Notes under the pieces: generated by a model
Database searches by the model: none
What the model was told of the DNA's origin: nothing
What the model saw: the letters and a program-made list of their open reading frames with translations, nothing else
Assembly (NCBI GenBank): GCA_044347345.1
Contig: JBIKUX010000013.1
Span: forward strand, 1-64,000
DNA from: Bdellovibrionota bacterium
GTDB taxonomy: Bacteria; Bdellovibrionota_C; UBA2361; JBIKUX01
DNA length: 64,000 nucleotides
Reading direction: 5' to 3'
Part shown: piece by piece, positions 50,295-63,737 of the stretch
How the letters are laid out: each line of letters starts with the position of its first letter
How positions within the stretch are numbered: position 1 is the first letter of the stretch
Position numbers and translations under genes: made by a program

Positions 50295-51737
50295 CTAAGA
50301 GCAATGTGGTTTATGAGCTACCCGAAGAAATTCCGTAACAGACACTCTCTGAAATTCCTCTGGATTTTCCCACCAAAATATTAACTTTTCAGCTCGCAAT
50401 GGAGAGTATACAGATTTTAAGGCAGCTAAAATTTTTTCTCTTAAATATGGATGTCCTTCCGAACGTCTTCGCTTATGTCCTATTGGATATTCAACTATAA
50501 CTTTTTCTGTCGCGGTTCCATCAGTGAAAAAAACTTGAACGCTGTTAGCAATGCTGCGCCGAGTAGGGTCGTAGTAACCTTCAGTAAATTGCTCATTCTC
50601 GTCCACAATCATTCGACTTCTAAGAAAATCTATCCGTGGGTCGGCTGCTACTTCATCGGTGTAATCTAGTTCAGTTAAATTTCCTTTGAGAAGAGCTATT
50701 GCTACTATATATTGAATACAGTGATCACGATCAGCTGGATTTCTTAGCTCTCCTGTTTTTGAAATTATCCTCTTACCTGGCTCTTGAGTGTAAATTTCTA
50801 TTCGCTCGATTTGATCTATTTTAGATGCGACAAAAGGATAAAGTTCTATGGCGCATTCAATAGCCGTCTGAGAATGAAACTCAGCCGGAAAAGCTATTTT
50901 AAGTAAAATGTTTTCCGCTACGTAAGATCCAAATTCACGAGAAATTGTGATAGGTTTACCCCTAAGTATTACGTCATTGAACCCCCACTTTGGTGTAGAT
51001 AACACTCTGGGATAACCTTGTTGTTTGCCCTGTAGAATTAAATAGGCAAGACGAACTGCGCGACTTGTTGCATCTCCAGCGGCCCAAGATTTTCGAGGCC
51101 CAGTGTTTGGATAATGTCTATATGTCCTAAGACTGTTTCCGTCAAGCCATACATGTGACAGTGCTTGCTCTATATCTTGCTTAGAACCACCAAACAGCTC
51201 AGTAGCTATTGCTACTGAAGCTAACTTTACTAAAATTACATGGTCTATACCAACTTCATTAAAAGAATTATTAAGAGCTAGTACGCCTTGAATTTCATAA
51301 GCTTTCACAGCTCGCAACAAAATATCAGCCATAATATATGGTGCTTTACCGGCTGATAGCGCTACACGACTTACGTAGTCACTAACGGCTAGTATCGCTC
51401 CAAAATTATCTGACGGATGACCCCATTCAGCAGCAAGCCATGTATCGTTAAAATCTAGCCAGCGAATTAAGGTGCCTATTGCAAAAGCACTTTGAACGGG
51501 ATCCAATATAAATGGGGTTGCAAAAACTCGCGAGCCATTTGTCACATTAATCTCAGAACTAATTGGACTAATTACAGCCATGCATTCCGATACTTTGGTA
51601 GCTAAAGCGGCACAAGCAAGGCTATCAAATAAACAGTGGTGAACCATAGCCAATGCTTCTGCTGTTGGGATAAATGATTTTGATGATGCATATTGCGCTA
51701 TAGCTACCAGTTCTTGGTCATATTTAAGAGTAGCCAT
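50295..51737 (-). CDS. prpD: 2-methylcitrate dehydratase
   Basis: RWLDFNDTWLAAEWGHPSDN, YRH.PNTGPRKSWAAGDA, FPAEFH.QTA, NPADRDHC.QY. Confidence 0.97.
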   Translation of the reverse strand: MATLKYDQELVAIAQYASSKSFIPTAEALAMVHHCLFDSLACAALATKVSECMAVISPISSEINVTNGSRVFATPFILDPVQSAFAIGTLIRWLDFNDTWLAAEWGHPSDNFGAILAVSDYVSRVALSAGKAPYIMADILLRAVKAYEIQGVLALNNSFNEVGIDHVILVKLASVAIATELFGGSKQDIEQALSHVWLDGNSLRTYRHYPNTGPRKSWAAGDATSRAVRLAYLILQGKQQGYPRVLSTPKWGFNDVILRGKPITISREFGSYVAENILLKIAFPAEFHSQTAIECAIELYPFVASKIDQIERIEIYTQEPGKRIISKTGELRNPADRDHCIQYIVAIALLKGNLTELDYTDEVAADPRIDFLRSRMIVDENEQFTEGYYDPTRRSIANSVQVFFTDGTATEKVIVEYPIGHKRRRSEGHPYLREKILAALKSVYSPLRAEKLIFWWENPEEFQRVSVTEFLRVAHKPHCS

Positions 51738-51868
51738 AATTTCTCCTATATTTTTTTAATCTGAATTGATCAGATTAATTCTTAACTTATGAATGCTCCG
51801 GATCTAAAATGTGTAAAAATCCCGACCTACTCATTTCTGTCATAAAAAATTAAGGTAAGGTTTATATG

Positions 51869-53011
51869 TCATGGGCGTTTAGATAATGGCACTACTTGTC
51901 TTTCAGGCGGGCCAACATATTCTGCGCTTGGCCTGATAATTCTATTATTAAGCCGTTGCTCTAATATATGAGCGCACCAACCAGCTATGCGCGAACAAAC
52001 AAAAATTGGAGTGAATAATTTTGTCGGTATTCCCATAAAATGGTAAGCAGACGCATGATAGAAATCAGCGTTTGGGAATAATTTTTTTTGCTGCCATAGC
52101 AATGCTTCAATAGCTTCAGAAATTTCATAAAGATGGGATTCAGGATGTTGTATTGAAAGTTTCTTTGCAAAACTTTTTATAACTGCACTTCTTGGGTCAC
52201 TAGTTCGGTAGATCGCATGACCAAAACCCATTATTTTTTGTTTATTTCTGAGTAAAATCTCAACTCCTGATACTGCCTCTTCTGGAGATGAAAACTGGCT
52301 AATTAGTTCCATTGCTTTCTCATTAGCTCCTCCGTGCAGAGAACCTCTTAGTGTTCCTATTGCAGCTGTGATTGCTGAATAAATATCTGATAAAGTTGAT
52401 GCGCATACTCGTGCCGCAAAGGTAGAAGCGTTAAATTCATGTTCGGCATACAGAATAAGGGAAGCGTTCAATACTGAAACATGTTCAGGATTTGGTTTAT
52501 CGCAAAGAAGGAGAAGTCTTAAAAAATGACCGGCAAGGGATGTTTCTTCACTTGTCGTGGAAATCCGTTTATTGTGATGCGAGAAGTGATACCAATAAAG
52601 AAGCATGGCAGGAAGTGTAGCTAATAGCCTCTCAGCTACTGCAAATAAAGAAACTGAAAATAAAGAAGATGGGTTTGTCTCAAAAAAATCTTCCTCCGGC
52701 TCCAAGCTACCTAGCACAGAACAGCCAGTTCTTAAAACATCCATCGGATGACTAGATTTAGGCAGCTCCTCTAGCACTTTACACAAGATCGGTGGCAGAG
52801 ATCTTTTCTCTATTAAAGAAGCACTAAAACTACTAAGCTCACTTGAATTGGGCAAATCTCCCTTAATTAGAAGATAAGCTATTTCCTCAAAAGAAGTCGT
52901 AAGTGCTAGTTCGGTTACATCGTATCCACGGTATCGCAAACCGTTTTCCTCTGCGCCGACTGTTGCAATTGCGGTTGTCCCTGCAACTATTCCTCGCAAG
53001 CCTTCGCTCAT
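51869..53011 (-). CDS. prpC: 2-methylcitrate synthase
   Basis: GLRG..AG.T, LYAEHEFNASTF, LHGGANE, MGFGH, FPNADFY; lies between prpB and prpD. Confidence 0.95.
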   Translation of the reverse strand: MSEGLRGIVAGTTAIATVGAEENGLRYRGYDVTELALTTSFEEIAYLLIKGDLPNSSELSSFSASLIEKRSLPPILCKVLEELPKSSHPMDVLRTGCSVLGSLEPEEDFFETNPSSLFSVSLFAVAERLLATLPAMLLYWYHFSHHNKRISTTSEETSLAGHFLRLLLLCDKPNPEHVSVLNASLILYAEHEFNASTFAARVCASTLSDIYSAITAAIGTLRGSLHGGANEKAMELISQFSSPEEAVSGVEILLRNKQKIMGFGHAIYRTSDPRSAVIKSFAKKLSIQHPESHLYEISEAIEALLWQQKKLFPNADFYHASAYHFMGIPTKLFTPIFVCSRIAGWCAHILEQRLNNRIIRPSAEYVGPPERQVVPLSKRP

Positions 53012-53097
53012 CGCTATCCTTCTATGTTATCATTACTCTAAACAAAGTGGTGTTTGGTTAATTGTCTGTTTTGCTGATGTGTTAATTCGTCACTATG

Positions 53098-53991
53098 TTA
53101 CGACGCCTCAATCTTAGTTTTCTGTGCGCTTAGCTCATCAAGATAATTTTCTGATTCGTGATACTTGATTACTTCGTATAGCTCTGAGCGAGTTTGCATC
53201 AATGGTAAAAGTTCACTTTGTGTTCCTCGAGCGCGTAAAGTTTCATAGACCGCAAGTGCAGACTTACTCATTACGCGAAAAGCAGTTAAGGGATAAAGAG
53301 CCATTCTCACGCCAACGCTCCCAAGCTCGCCCAGAGAGAAGAGGGGAGTCTGACCAAACTCAGTTAAATTTGCTAAAACTGGCACCTTACATCGCAAAAC
53401 AAACTCTCGGTACTCATCAAGACTCTTAACTGCTTCAGGGAAAATAGCATCAGCACCACATTCAACATAAAATTGAGCGCGCTCCAAGGCTACCTGTAAG
53501 CCCTCAAGAGCTAAAGCATCAGTTCTTGCGATAACAAAAAGTGAAGAGCTAGTGCGAGAATCAACTATGGCCTTGAGCCGAGAACCCATTTCTTCTGGTG
53601 CTACCACCTCTTTATTGGGTCTATGTCCACACCGTTTAGCCTGTATTTGGTCTTCAATCTGAAGCGCGCTAACGTTACACCTCTCAGCAGATTTTACCAC
53701 TCTCTTGATTGTTAATGCATTCCCCCAACCGGTATCGATATCAACTAAAAGTGGTACATCTACAACATCAGTTATTCGCTGAGCTTCCCCGAATACCTCG
53801 GTAAAAGTTGTCAATCCTAAATCTGGAAGACCAAAAGCGTTCACTGAAACACCACTACCGGACAAATAGAGGGCTTTCATACCAGCCTTTACAGCTAGCA
53901 AAGCTGTGTAAGCGTTAGTCACTCCGGGAATTTGAAGAGGAGACTCAGCTATTAAGGCTTCATTAAATGTCTTGCGCATAATTTTAAACAA
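53098..53991 (-). CDS. prpB: Methylisocitrate lyase
   Basis: GLPDLG, VDIDTGWG, IEDQ..AKRCGHRPNK, ARTDA, LANLTEFG.TP. Confidence 0.96.
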   Translation of the reverse strand: MFKIMRKTFNEALIAESPLQIPGVTNAYTALLAVKAGMKALYLSGSGVSVNAFGLPDLGLTTFTEVFGEAQRITDVVDVPLLVDIDTGWGNALTIKRVVKSAERCNVSALQIEDQIQAKRCGHRPNKEVVAPEEMGSRLKAIVDSRTSSSLFVIARTDALALEGLQVALERAQFYVECGADAIFPEAVKSLDEYREFVLRCKVPVLANLTEFGQTPLFSLGELGSVGVRMALYPLTAFRVMSKSALAVYETLRARGTQSELLPLMQTRSELYEVIKYHESENYLDELSAQKTKIEAS

Positions 53992-54241
53992 TCTCCACCC
54001 TGCCTTAGTATAAGACTTCTATTAAAAGATATTGGCAAGACTACCTTTTAGGCAAATCACTTTTTAGTCTATTAGAGCTTACTTTTGGTGAGCTTGAGAG
54101 TAATAAATAAAGCTGTTAACCTTTTTGTATTTGTTTTACCTTCTGGCTATAAAACTAATAAAAGTAATTAGTATTTAGTAACAGCTTAGCAGTTAAAAAT
54201 AGTTTTCTAGCGAAAAGCTACCTAGTAAGGAAAGTACCCAA

Positions 54242-55564
54242 ATGGAAAGAAACCAGACCGTCGTCATTTCTCCTCGACGCTCTGCTCGAATCAAAGGTGC
54301 TAGTAGAGGGCGTGGAACATTACGACCAAGCAACCTTAATATTTCTTCGTCTAAAAATATTTCTTCGTCTAAATCTCGTGGAACAACGAGGGGGTCATCT
54401 GAACCAACAACAGTATCATCAGAAACAGTAGCATCAGAAAGAGTTGAGAGCAGTAAAGAGAGTTTTACTGAATCACTTGCAAGCGACACCATAAAGGTCA
54501 GAAAAATTATCCACATTAATATGGATAATTTGTATGCTGCAATTGAACAAAGAGATAATCCAACTCAGTTACTCGGTAAGCCAGTTATTGTGGGAAGAGA
54601 GGATTTAGGAGAGCGCAGTGTAGTGTGTTCCGTGAGTAAAGAGGGTGCCAATTACGGAATTCACAATTCCATGCCAATTAAACTTGCTATAGCTCGGTGC
54701 CCTAACGTGATAGTCGTACCTCCACGTTTTGCGGTATACCAAAAAGTATCTCAGCAAATTTTAGGCATTCTCAAAGAATACAGCCCATTTGTTGAACCCC
54801 TTGAACTTGTTGAAGCTTATATTGAGGTTACTGACTCTCCGAAAGGATTAACCTCGGCAACTTTACTTGCAAAGGAAATTAAACAAAGAATATTGCAATC
54901 GACCGGTCTGATTTGCTCGATAGGAGTGTCAAATAATAAATTTGTTGCCAAAGCCGCCAGTAGTTTGGGTAAACCAGATGGCCTTGTAGTCGTTCCTCCA
55001 AATAAAGTTTGTGAATTTTTGGAGCAACTTCCAATTCATAATTTTCATGGTATCAGTAAAACAACGACAGAACGATTTTTACAACGAGGTGTAAAAAATG
55101 GGCTTGATTTAAAAAGGATCTCTGAATTAGAGCTCCGTCAGAATTTCGGCAAACTAGGCTATTTTTTGTATTATTTAGTCCGAGGTAAAGATAACAGGTC
55201 TATAATTGCAAACCGCGAACAGAAATCACTTTATGCCGGGTTTACCTTTGTTCATGAAGAAAAAGTGCTCAATATTATTGAGGGTAAACTACTTGAGCTC
55301 ACTGAACTTGTGACCGAAAAACTGAATTATCTTGACCGAGGCGCTAAATGTGTGGTTGTCAAGATAACAAACTCATTATTTATCACACGTTCTCGCCGGC
55401 TTTCTTTTGCTACCTCGACCATAAACTGTGAGGATCTTAGCCGAGCCGCTCGATTTTGTTTACTTGCTCTGATTCAACCCAATGAGAGCATTCATCGTAT
55501 TGGTGTTAGTTTAACTAACTTAGCCGAGCGGCCAAAATATCAGCAATTGAGCATTTTTGGCTAA
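54242..55564 (+). CDS. dinB: DinB (Pol IV)-like Y-family protein with substituted catalytic residues
   Basis: Full DinB fold (RKIIH...AAIEQRDNP, NKFVAK.AS...KPDGL, little finger, QLSIF tail), but HINMD and LELVEAY replace HVDMD and LSLDEAY. Confidence 0.85.
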   Translation: MERNQTVVISPRRSARIKGASRGRGTLRPSNLNISSSKNISSSKSRGTTRGSSEPTTVSSETVASERVESSKESFTESLASDTIKVRKIIHINMDNLYAAIEQRDNPTQLLGKPVIVGREDLGERSVVCSVSKEGANYGIHNSMPIKLAIARCPNVIVVPPRFAVYQKVSQQILGILKEYSPFVEPLELVEAYIEVTDSPKGLTSATLLAKEIKQRILQSTGLICSIGVSNNKFVAKAASSLGKPDGLVVVPPNKVCEFLEQLPIHNFHGISKTTTERFLQRGVKNGLDLKRISELELRQNFGKLGYFLYYLVRGKDNRSIIANREQKSLYAGFTFVHEEKVLNIIEGKLLELTELVTEKLNYLDRGAKCVVVKITNSLFITRSRRLSFATSTINCEDLSRAARFCLLALIQPNESIHRIGVSLTNLAERPKYQQLSIFG

Positions 55565-55601: not shown

Positions 55602-57203
55602 ATGATACGATTTTGTATTCCTCTATTTTTCTCTTTCTTACTATCAATAATTACTTATAGCAATATTGATGAAGATTTGTGGTGGCACCTCAGAGTAGGT
55701 CAATTAATTTACGGTAACGGTGAACTGCCGGCTTTAGATCCGTACTCTTACACGGCGTCATCTGCGCGTTGGATTAACCATGAGTGGTTAAGCGATGTAG
55801 CTATAGCTAAAATTTACAATATTTCAGGAAGCATCGGTCTTTTCTGGCTCAGAGCAATATTAATTATTTGTATAGGAGCATTACTATACCGCCTCGCAAA
55901 ACCTTTCGGTTGGATTGGCATGATAACCGGATGTATTGTTGTCGCCGAATTAGGAAAAGGTCTTGGCACTCGACCTCAGATTTGGACGTATGGCAGCATG
56001 GCCGTCCTTGTTCTAATCTTTGGTTCGTCAGTGCTAATAAATCGTACCAACCTTAGTAGGGTTAGGGTAGGGTGGGGGATGCTACCAGCAGCTCTGCTGT
56101 TCCCTTTTTTTTCGCTTTGGGTAAACATCCACGGTGGTTGGATAGCTGGAGTGGTATTTCTCTTGGGTTTAGCTGGTCATGCCATTCTATTCAATGCACC
56201 GAAGAGAGAGATTTTATTTAGATCCAGCTGGGCGATTTCAGCATTATTGGGAACTTTAATTAACCCCTACGGCACCGAAGTCTATAAATACTTGCTTAAT
56301 GAATTTAGCAGAAATCATCCAATTACCGAGTGGCAACCCATAACTGTTAATTTAAGTGAGCATTTGCCATTTTTGCTTCTTACAATACTTTTTGTAATTT
56401 TACATCTGTACCTGTTCAAGAAAAATTTGCATCGACTGACTCTATACTCTCCGAGTACTGCTCCGCTAAGTTTAGCCGCATTTTTTGCTATTATTTTGGC
56501 TTGGCAAGCTCAACGACATACTCCCTTAGCTGCCTTACTACTTTTTGTACCGATAGCTAGCGGCTTAACTGGCATTGTCGATTCATTTCCGAAAACTTTT
56601 TTTTCTAAGCAGTCAGTTTCGATTTTAAAGATTAGTTTAGTAGCCTTTACACTTTATAAAATTGTTAATGCAGTGTTGTTATTCTCAGTACACTCTGGTC
56701 AGTTGTTCTATTTTAATGATGAATATCCAGAAGAGGCACTGAAACACACCAAGCAGTTAATGACTTCAGGAAAAATGGCAGTACCTCTTGAGTGGGGTGG
56801 CTATGTATTGGCTTTAGCTGGTCCAAATATTAAAATTTCTCTTGATGGTAGGTTCGCAACTCTCTATCCAGAATCAATAGTTGAGGGAAATTTTGCTCTC
56901 TATAACGGGGCAACTGGTTGGGAAGAATACATTCAAAAATTTAAGCCTGACGTCATTCTAGCACCAAACTATCTTCCACATCTGGAAAAAAGCGACAAAT
57001 GGACAGTAAGTTACCGAGACAAAATTTCCACGGTCTATCTTGCGACTGATTCTTTATCCACTGACTCTTTATCTACTGACTCTTTATCTACTGGCTATGT
57101 CCCCAAGAAAGCTTTTAGTCTAGAAAACTCGCCTACCATGACCTTCTCGCATTCGCATTTTCCTCTCAACGAAACTGGAAGACTCGTAATTTTTTCTCCC
57201 TAG
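55602..57203 (+). CDS. Multi-pass membrane protein, GT-C-like (putative lipid-linked glycosyltransferase)
   Basis: DEDLWWHLRVG, DPYSYT, WINHEWL, RPQ, LWVNIHGG, INPYG, EWQP, WGGY and DGR across about 11 TM segments. Confidence 0.65.
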   Translation: MIRFCIPLFFSFLLSIITYSNIDEDLWWHLRVGQLIYGNGELPALDPYSYTASSARWINHEWLSDVAIAKIYNISGSIGLFWLRAILIICIGALLYRLAKPFGWIGMITGCIVVAELGKGLGTRPQIWTYGSMAVLVLIFGSSVLINRTNLSRVRVGWGMLPAALLFPFFSLWVNIHGGWIAGVVFLLGLAGHAILFNAPKREILFRSSWAISALLGTLINPYGTEVYKYLLNEFSRNHPITEWQPITVNLSEHLPFLLLTILFVILHLYLFKKNLHRLTLYSPSTAPLSLAAFFAIILAWQAQRHTPLAALLLFVPIASGLTGIVDSFPKTFFSKQSVSILKISLVAFTLYKIVNAVLLFSVHSGQLFYFNDEYPEEALKHTKQLMTSGKMAVPLEWGGYVLALAGPNIKISLDGRFATLYPESIVEGNFALYNGATGWEEYIQKFKPDVILAPNYLPHLEKSDKWTVSYRDKISTVYLATDSLSTDSLSTDSLSTGYVPKKAFSLENSPTMTFSHSHFPLNETGRLVIFSP

Positions 57204-57381: not shown

Positions 57382-57948
57382 TTAACGAATAGTTTGATTA
57401 CACAATCCTTTAACGCTACCGATGCACCGTCCGGCATCTTCTACTTTAGCACAACTTTTTTTGTTCAAAGTGAAAAATATCGCAGGTTTACCAGAGCTTT
57501 TAATAGCTTTGCGTCTGAGGCTAGATGTACTCATAGTACAACGGTACCTACCTCCACTGTGGCCATGCGCCACCGCCCACGGACAAGATCCGATTGTTGT
57601 TCCTTTAGAATCTAATATTTTAGCACCTTTAGTTGAGCCAATTCTTGCATTCAAAATTAAAGTAGGCTCCTTTCGAAAACCGACTATTGGGGCCGGATAA
57701 GTACGGCCACCGGCTCTCATTGGAGCTGAATGCTTGTAAATAAATGAACGACCTTTTTTTACATCTAAAATGCGCTCACAACCGCGTTTTACAAGCTCTT
57801 TATACTCACCTTTACCTACCTGTTCTGCTCGATTTAAGCTAAGTGACTTAGCACCACTACTATCACTCTCTTGTGCGTAAACTAAAGAGCCCGGAAGTTT
57901 TACGGCAAAAAGTAATACAAAACATGTAATGATGTTGGTTTTTTTCAT
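57382..57948 (-). CDS. Secreted basic Cys-rich hypothetical protein
   Basis: Signal peptide ending VYAQE; 6 Cys in the mature region; similar to the C-terminal domain of 5324..5950. Confidence 0.7.
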   Translation of the reverse strand: MKKTNIITCFVLLFAVKLPGSLVYAQESDSSGAKSLSLNRAEQVGKGEYKELVKRGCERILDVKKGRSFIYKHSAPMRAGGRTYPAPIVGFRKEPTLILNARIGSTKGAKILDSKGTTIGSCPWAVAHGHSGGRYRCTMSTSSLRRKAIKSSGKPAIFFTLNKKSCAKVEDAGRCIGSVKGLCNQTIR

Positions 57949-63098: not shown

Positions 63099-63737
63099 TT
63101 GGGTAGCAATTTAGCCATAAACCGGTATGCGCAGTTGGGAGAGGAGTCTTATGACACCAATCTCATTACTGGCGCCCTGTTATGGGCTGACATGCGCAAG
63201 CTCGCCCAGCTTATCTGCAGCGGTCATACGCCTGCAGCAATCAGATCGCTTGTGGTAGAAACCAACTTGCTGCAACGAAGCAGGCCAAAAACTTCATTAA
63301 ATATCTATTCATACTTGTCTAAGCGTCTTTCAATCTCCCCTCCATCTCTTATTCGTTTGATAGCTGACGGTAATAGCATCGTTTCGAGACAAGCAGCTCT
63401 TCTCGCAGCGATGCTATCAAGTCGATTTCTTAGGGAGTTTTTTGGCACTGTAGTTTGCGATCGCCTTGAGAGCTTTAACCCCTCGCTGGCTTCACTGTTT
63501 TGGGAAGACTACTGGAGCTCTTGTGTTGCAAACGACCCCTCACTTCATTCGGTCAGACAAAAGACAGTCAACAAAATCAGATCCAATCTGCTCAAAGTTC
63601 TAGTTGAAGTAGATGTCCTCGAATCTCCAAAGGCAAAGGCGTTAAAGGCTGTTCGATTTTATCCACAAGTCACAGCACTTTTGAAGTCGTCAGAGCTTAT
63701 GTGGTTAAAACCCTATATTAGAAGCTTTGTAAGGTAA
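63099..63737 (+). CDS. brxA: BREX protein BrxA (DUF1819)
   Basis: Y...LI.GAL...D.RK.A.L...N.LQR...T......L..RL...Q..LLA....S..L.EF...VV...T..KI...L.KVL.E; followed by brxB. Confidence 0.85.
   Translation: MGSNLAINRYAQLGEESYDTNLITGALLWADMRKLAQLICSGHTPAAIRSLVVETNLLQRSRPKTSLNIYSYLSKRLSISPPSLIRLIADGNSIVSRQAALLAAMLSSRFLREFFGTVVCDRLESFNPSLASLFWEDYWSSCVANDPSLHSVRQKTVNKIRSNLLKVLVEVDVLESPKAKALKAVRFYPQVTALLKSSELMWLKPYIRSFVR

Follow-up and report, generated by a model that had tools for sequence, protein, structure and literature searches.

The window analysed here, a stretch of 64,000 nucleotides of DNA from a Bdellovibrionota bacterium, carries a gene with the layout of a DinB (Pol IV) type Y-family polymerase in which catalytic residues are replaced. 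This raises the question whether the gene is a dinB drifting towards a pseudogene or encodes a protein that is kept for work other than DNA synthesis. The features of the gene and its product (P0001) are as follows; residue names such as D8 refer to E. coli Pol IV, and equivalences were taken from an alignment to that enzyme.

54242..55564, + strand: whole gene, putative DinB-derived pseudo-polymerase of 440 aa (ORF call, domain matches, predicted Y-family fold)
54226..54231, + strand: Shine-Dalgarno-like TAAGGA ahead of the upstream ATG, kept in the sister species
54242..54301, + strand: basic peptide at the N-terminus (residues 1-20), conserved, with 19/20 residues matching in the sister species (L039)
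54302..54496, + strand: rest of the leader, with weak conservation as far as residue 38 or so, followed by a Ser/Thr-rich spacer
54518..54535, + strand: motif I, remodelled (D8N, A(11)N, F12L); M9, D10 and the steric-gate aromatic kept
54614..54670, + strand: fingers motif II, remodelled (G39S, Y46K, A48G, R49A, S55N, A56S)
54803..54814, + strand: motif III (S/A101E, D103V); E104 kept
54998..55192, + strand: thumb (253-317), with GxS in place of the helix-hairpin-helix GxG at residue 272
55223..55525, + strand: little-finger domain, residues 328-428; template-base contacts K291 and R330 replaced by T376 and H418
55541..55558, + strand: C-terminal motif for clamp binding, QQLSIF, residues 434-439 (protein sequence, predicted complex)

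Reading frame and catalytic pocket

The frame from 54242 to 55564 (+) contains no internal stop, and the earlier note was right to call it full length at 440 aa. P0001 contains PF00817 and PF11799 in the palm-fingers-thumb-little-finger order of DinB and, with 311 bits, exceeds the cut-off of 256 set for NF002677, the equivalog of DNA polymerase IV in NCBIfam; codon use is ordinary (36th percentile). The gene is an annotation trap, as it passes this cut-off with its catalytic loss unflagged. Moreover, the database version of the protein has 347 aa and starts at M94, so that the change at D8 (N93) is hidden in that record; a start at M94 would cut the first palm strand.

A sequencing error, which the earlier note had named as a possible refutation, was excluded. 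Contigs of runs X9 and X10 cover both substituted Asp codons and one X18 contig covers N93 and motif II; these independent lake contigs carry the same letters and rule out a sequencing or assembly error as source of the altered pocket. When eight runs were compared at low depth, no differing letter was listed for the gene, and population pN/pS had zero variants to work with; these runs may share one lake. Contigs on dinB and prpB were also found in the RNA run X15, where contigs of an RNA library do not show transcription, and a promoter scan at the gene gave nothing above chance.

In the alignment to E. coli Pol IV, D8 corresponds to N93 (AAT, 54518), D103 to V190 (GTT, 54809) and the position of S101 to E188 (codon 54803). 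Of the triphosphate triad Y46/R49/K157, represented by K133/A136/K244, only K157 is kept; D10 (D95) and E104 (E191) are retained as well. On the template side, contacts at G39, A56, K291 and R330 are changed. The substitutions reported in the earlier note (D8 to N, D103 to V, S101 to E) and the replacement of the Y.AR..G motif are thereby borne out. For comparison, 273 homologs were collected and 264 of 330-430 aa, picked by likeness to the query, were used as references. All 264 of these have D103, Y46 and R49, and D8 occurs in 247/248 that cover the site. The position of S101 is Ala in the ortholog P0127 and in 28/264 references, and the ancestral residue there may have been Ala rather than Ser. 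According to sections of PMC3643571, D8 and D103 are metal ligands of Pol IV, and single D8A or D103N mutants are in use as polymerase-null controls in excerpts of PMC4117773 and PMC3096655. Judged by these residues, P0001 likely makes no DNA. D8N alone recurs sporadically among DinBs: the unrelated P0018 and L034:5001-5723 carry it with D103, Y46 and R49 intact.

Relatives and the pattern of change

A word-based search returned, besides the gene's own fragment, only ordinary DinBs 37-50% identical to P0001. Scanning 1.84 billion representatives with HMMER gave one clear ortholog, P0127 (380 bits; next hit 252), a protein-only record of 432 aa that is 49% identical and has all catalytic motifs intact, a 75-residue N-terminal extension of its own and a divergent little finger. 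Two of its pocket positions are already off consensus (A11V, S55T). The two proteins form a clade with an SH-aLRT of 100, with branch lengths of 0.83 for P0001 and 0.44 for P0127 (1.16 and 0.54 in a second tree). All trees were quick trees; in one the pair fell outside the starred group of DinBs of the order and class, and an AU test did not reject its grouping with the DinBs of the order (p=0.12). The little fingers of both proteins are 48% identical. Among 6971 active pairs with like core identity, 15 reach this little-finger identity; of 654 pairs matched in little-finger identity, 111 show a core identity no higher than here. This relation supports the orthology of P0001 and P0127 and is weak on selection.

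No third full-length member of the clade was found in the searches, and viral contigs gave nothing. A profile of the C-terminal half of the clade scored 300.7 bits on P0001 and at most 75.6 in 123 other genomes of the phylum. Within the order, 7/90 other genomes have a DinB, all seven with intact motifs, and in the remaining 83/90 nothing matched DinB with an E of at most 1e-40. An order- or phylum-wide family of inactive DinBs is ruled out by the seven intact proteins together with the phylum profile scan. As a side observation, many genomes of the order (L008-L028) carry UmuC-like or other intact Y-family polymerases, not DinB. The earlier note had suggested looking for the substitutions in orthologs and had regarded intact close orthologs as evidence against its reading. 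P0127, the closest full-length ortholog, shares none of the catalytic losses and keeps every catalytic residue, D8 and D103 among them, which counts in part against that reading; the loss of the pocket is thus lineage-specific and not the mark of an old family.

The metagenome contig L039 represents a sister species, with 80% DNA identity over prpC-prpB and the same gene order. It stops at codon 67 of dinB, before the active-site region; up to there, gene order, ribosome site and start codon are preserved, together with 19/20 residues at the N-terminus.

We then asked where in P0001 conserved sites have changed, using as pocket the nascent-base-pair residues given in sections of PMC3643571. 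Changes were found at 10/18 pocket sites and at 13/82 other sites (Fisher p=0.0009), compared with 2/18 and 10/82 in P0127. The contrast held at matched conservation of at least 95% (8/13 vs 5/32, p=0.004), with P0127 as ancestral proxy (8/16 vs 8/72, p=0.001) and with the 134 HMMER representatives alone. The pocket changes require 14 or more base changes across 11 codons, with no stop arising. In a neutral simulation with point changes only and no indels, the frame remained open in 4/1000 cases at 20% residue divergence and in 0/1000 at 30%. Hydrophobic columns were kept at 85/90, and 4/5 exceptions lie within motifs I-II. Outside the pocket, P0001 differs at 9/50 sites conserved at 90%, more than 99% of the references do, and it has lost 10/33 basic columns (reference median 5, 95th percentile 11) as well as the helix-hairpin-helix glycine (G272S). 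Altogether, the pattern of loss seems unlike that of random decay. With one full-length sequence of this kind from one species, selection for a folded protein without catalysis is likely though unproven. The DinB cut-off and the pocket-focused loss support the view of the earlier note that this is an independently derived pseudo-polymerase and not an ImuB.

Clamp motif and N-terminal leader

The AlphaFold2 model of P0001 shows a complete Y-family fold with a mean pLDDT of 85.5 and a low-confidence N-terminus. The structures nearest to it are DinB, with a TM of 0.91 (by target) and an rmsd of 2.2 Å to 4ir1_A. The protein ends in QQLSIFG (434-440), one residue past the clamp motif, which leaves no room for a RecA-NT tail; only 2/1861 ORFs of the genome have a strict clamp motif at the C-terminus. 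Residues 322-440 were modelled with the DnaN of the same genome, alongside three controls. The predicted complex scored 0.73 and the best control 0.00; the mark set for this score is attained by 116/157 solved pairs and 2/215 mismatched pairs. Runs agreed in at least 98% of contacts, with a partner pLDDT of at least 84, and residues 434-439 were placed on DnaN 173-178 and 364-369, the clamp pocket. Because a Pol IV little-finger/clamp structure had already been solved (listed among the references of PMC3643571), the passing score shows likeness, possibly learned by the predictor from that structure, and is not proof of binding. The tail is thus predicted to dock on its own clamp, and the clamp motif that the earlier note described as intact is present.

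The first 85 residues contain 21 Ser, 9 Thr and 10 Arg, and residues 1-50 contain 12 basic and 1 acidic residue; pLDDT is below 50 at residues 1-65, where alignment cover is small. In these respects the Ser/Arg-rich, disordered leader of about 85 aa described earlier was found again, with the qualification that part of it consists of tandem duplications of a type frequent throughout this genome. The leader holds an exact 18-nt duplication (54338-54373) and a 15-nt one with a 14/15 match (54411-54440), and the sister species has a 15-nt expansion of its own. Genome-wide (G000), 144 exact tandem duplications of 12-20 nt were counted, with a peak at 15 nt, compared with 0 in 1 Mb of shuffled DNA. 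TDSLS repeats are also seen in the ORF at 55602-57203, alongside the tandem duplications of the genome. P0001 as cause of these duplications gained no support: loci of families f10 (intact DinBs) and f7 show some too, in small and overlapping samples.

The start of the leader behaves differently from the rest. Over the first 20 codons, the gene and its counterpart in L039 differ by three synonymous changes and one non-synonymous change (residues 1-8 served as search pattern), corresponding to a dN of 0.023 and a dS of 0.22, vs 0.056 and 0.78 for the neighbouring prpB; indels later in the leader are in frame. The leader thus looks like a short conserved basic peptide of about the first 20-35 residues on a tolerant spacer. 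This conservation could be at the nucleotide level, given a constraint on synonymous sites too (dS 0.22). The peptide had no match elsewhere in the genome or in the Atlas (best score 0.75) and the leader was not alignable to the extension of P0127; N-terminal extensions of more than 30 aa occur in 6/247 references. A resemblance between the SPRRSAR peptide and eukaryotic chromatin-binding motifs gained no backing from the genome or the Atlas.

Genomic setting and possible roles

The gene is divergent from prpB and is followed by a gene for an unassigned membrane protein. Nothing else in the genome, which is 95.8% complete, matches PF00817; a second, active DinB was not found there, and the term 'paralog' used in the earlier note is dropped, together with the idea of a paralog of an active DinB. 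A complete imuA-imuB-dnaE2 run lies on another contig (G000:C40:38650-44389, L033), with imuA of 287 aa (weak ImuA/SulA match), imuB of 545 aa and dnaE2 of 1069 aa, the last above the NF004225 cut-off; lexA-recA and dnaN are present as well. The earlier note had separated the gene from ImuB by the missing imuA/dnaE2 neighbourhood and had proposed a search for dnaE2. Both points turned out well: P0001 passes the DinB cut-off, a separate imuB exists, and dnaE2 is found with it on C40. The same full-length imuB rules out that P0001 stands in for a lost ImuB. The clamp motif of this genome's ImuB (QFDLN) is weak, and among 28 aligned sequences this ImuB diverges most, being off the order consensus at 33/104 columns compared with at most 26 in 27 relatives. 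Compensation for a broken ImuB clamp motif is ruled out, as the motif is weak or degenerate throughout the order, including relatives without such a DinB.

A putative LexA box, the direct repeat TTCTA(G/T)-N5-TTnnA(G/T), was present in 26/30 lexA upstream regions and in 26/30 imuB loci (L062-L090, L092-L121; many from one genus), against a background of 0.03 per kb; a limited literature search found no description of this order-wide repeat. Sites in this genome lie upstream of imuA (G000:C40:44525), of lexA-recA (G000:C21:45128) and of a UvrD-like gene (G000:C49:92810), and the best intergenic match precedes imuA (17.3; lexA 11.7). Upstream of dinB no such predicted box was found (best score 9.6, not conserved; sister 3.8), and it is likewise absent from 6/7 loci of active DinBs in the order. 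The gene probably does not belong to the SOS regulon, and the lack of the box that imuA has weakens a role as SOS mutasome adaptor.

Inactive Y-family proteins are already known (ImuB, the scDinB2-like, gbDinB2-like and Kyrpidia types). Like ImuB, P0001 combines a Y-family fold lacking catalytic residues with clamp binding, which is predicted for P0001; unlike ImuB, it is far closer to DinB (about 40% identity), has neither RecA-NT nor ImuB-C and lies outside an imuA/dnaE2 operon in a genome with a separate ImuB. The scDinB2-like, gbDinB2-like and Kyrpidia-type proteins are inactive and related to the PolY-core, as is P0001, and according to sections of PMC6511836 they occur with dnaE2 and/or ImuB-C and carry RecA-NT. 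Going by these descriptions, P0001 is set apart from the scDinB2-like and gbDinB2-like types as solitary, without RecA-NT or dnaE2 linkage, and as sister to an intact DinB. With the PolY-core of E. coli Pol IV (4ir1) it shares the domain order, the predicted fold, the clamp motif and the lack of a RecA-NT tail, and it differs at D8, D103, Y46, R49, S55, A56, K291 and R330 and in its 85-residue leader. P0001 thus appears to resemble inactive PolY proteins in its working and to belong neither with ImuB nor with active DinB. Excerpts of a 2026 survey (PMC12926913) describe inactive Y-family members as dispersed or in diffuse groups. Beyond this survey and PMC6511836, as far as the sections of both go, the literature searched describes no solitary DinB of this kind; the supplement of the former may list some.

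The closest functional likeness is to E. coli Pol IV D8A and D103N, which also combine a dead pocket with an intact clamp motif; those are engineered single mutants, whereas P0001 is a natural gene product with the whole pocket remodelled. In excerpts of PMC5643309, Pol III that meets a hairpin or downstream primer loses clamp and primer end to Pol IV D8A, a takeover that requires the clamp motif, and D8A pauses Pol III more than the wild type does; excess DinB slows forks (sections of PMC4330395). From these mutants we infer that a protein that synthesizes no DNA could still take over from Pol III in a clamp-dependent manner. We put at about even chances that P0001 is a non-catalytic occupant of clamp and primer end. 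The catalytic pocket has been lost in this lineage, and selection has likely kept the gene. The protein would bind the clamp via its C-terminal motif, take the place of stalled Pol III and keep the 3' end occupied but unextended, in the manner of a brake or placeholder; strand displacement would be limited and forks slowed or parked until repair or the DnaE2 mutasome acts, so that Pol III would be braked without mutations being made. The basic N-terminal peptide might, on its flexible spacer, contribute binding to nucleic acid or to a partner.

Against any such role it can be held that, in E. coli, dinB(D103N) as the single chromosomal copy resembles a dinB deletion in tests of survival under MMS or NFZ (sections of PMC3096655), and hence that a dead DinB may have no effect at normal level. 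That the gene is simply decaying, its activity lost and no stop yet acquired, is rather unlikely. The intact P0127, the branch to P0001 that is about twice as long and also fits relaxed constraint, the loss of some DNA-binding residues, the restriction to a single species and the dispensability of DinB in the order (83/90 genomes without a match) would all agree with decay; the clustering of changes in the pocket with the core spared, the many hits on the gene without a stop and, in a species with about 80% DNA identity, a start peptide that is conserved and indels that stay in frame speak against it. Residual activity of a rebuilt site (E188, E191, D95, K133), as weak synthesis or other DNA-end chemistry, is very improbable: E104, D10 and K157 are kept, a Glu has arisen beside the former D103 and a Lys in place of Y46, but both metal ligands (PMC3643571, in part) and R49 are gone, and mutants lacking one ligand, D8A or D103N, already serve as polymerase-null (PMC4117773 and PMC3096655, in part).

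Two further readings give the protein a different partner, and each is improbable. As a second scaffold in the mutasome made up of ImuA, ImuB and DnaE2, P0001 would recruit DnaE2 or ImuB to the clamp. The genome does encode this set, its unusually divergent ImuB has the weak QFDLN motif, and the inactive PolY groups described in excerpts of PMC6511836 go with DnaE2. P0001, however, has neither a RecA-NT nor an ImuB-C region and stops at the clamp motif, its gene is unlinked to dnaE2 and lacks the LexA-like box of imuA, and ImuB clamp motifs are equally weak in relatives without such a DinB. A job away from the replisome, as a DNA/RNA binder or adaptor led by the N-terminal peptide with the clamp motif secondary, would suit the strongly basic residues 1-50, the missing SOS box and a start more conserved than prpB (dN 0.023 vs 0.056). 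It fits less well with a peptide that is unmatched in genome and Atlas and unalignable with the extension of P0127, with conservation that could be at the nucleotide level, and with the retention of the whole fold and the clamp motif.

If the clamp and primer-end reading is right, its interest lies in the fact that the question of a true non-catalytic role of DinB, in fork braking or polymerase exchange, has until now been approached through engineered mutants. A gene from nature with catalysis shed and fold and clamp motif kept would mean that such a role is selectable alone, a weight limited by the single species. P0001 and the intact P0127, 49% identical, offer a pair for direct comparison at the bench. 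A wider reading is doubtful: bacteria might repeatedly have made DinB a solitary, RecA-independent pseudo-polymerase, a clamp-bound brake or anti-mutator, of which this pair would be a natural before-and-after and the N-terminal peptide a new targeting element.

The surroundings of the gene in the window are mixed. On the minus strand, 50295-53991 holds ordinary prpB-prpC-prpD-like methylcitrate genes, of which prpC and prpD were named by sequence reading and prpB by profile scan. The 533-aa membrane protein directly downstream of dinB (55602-57203, +) and a 188-aa protein with a signal-peptide-like start (57382-57948, -) gave no Pfam or NCBIfam match. At 63099-63737 (+) lies a BrxA-family gene, possibly the start of a BREX defence locus that continues beyond the window.
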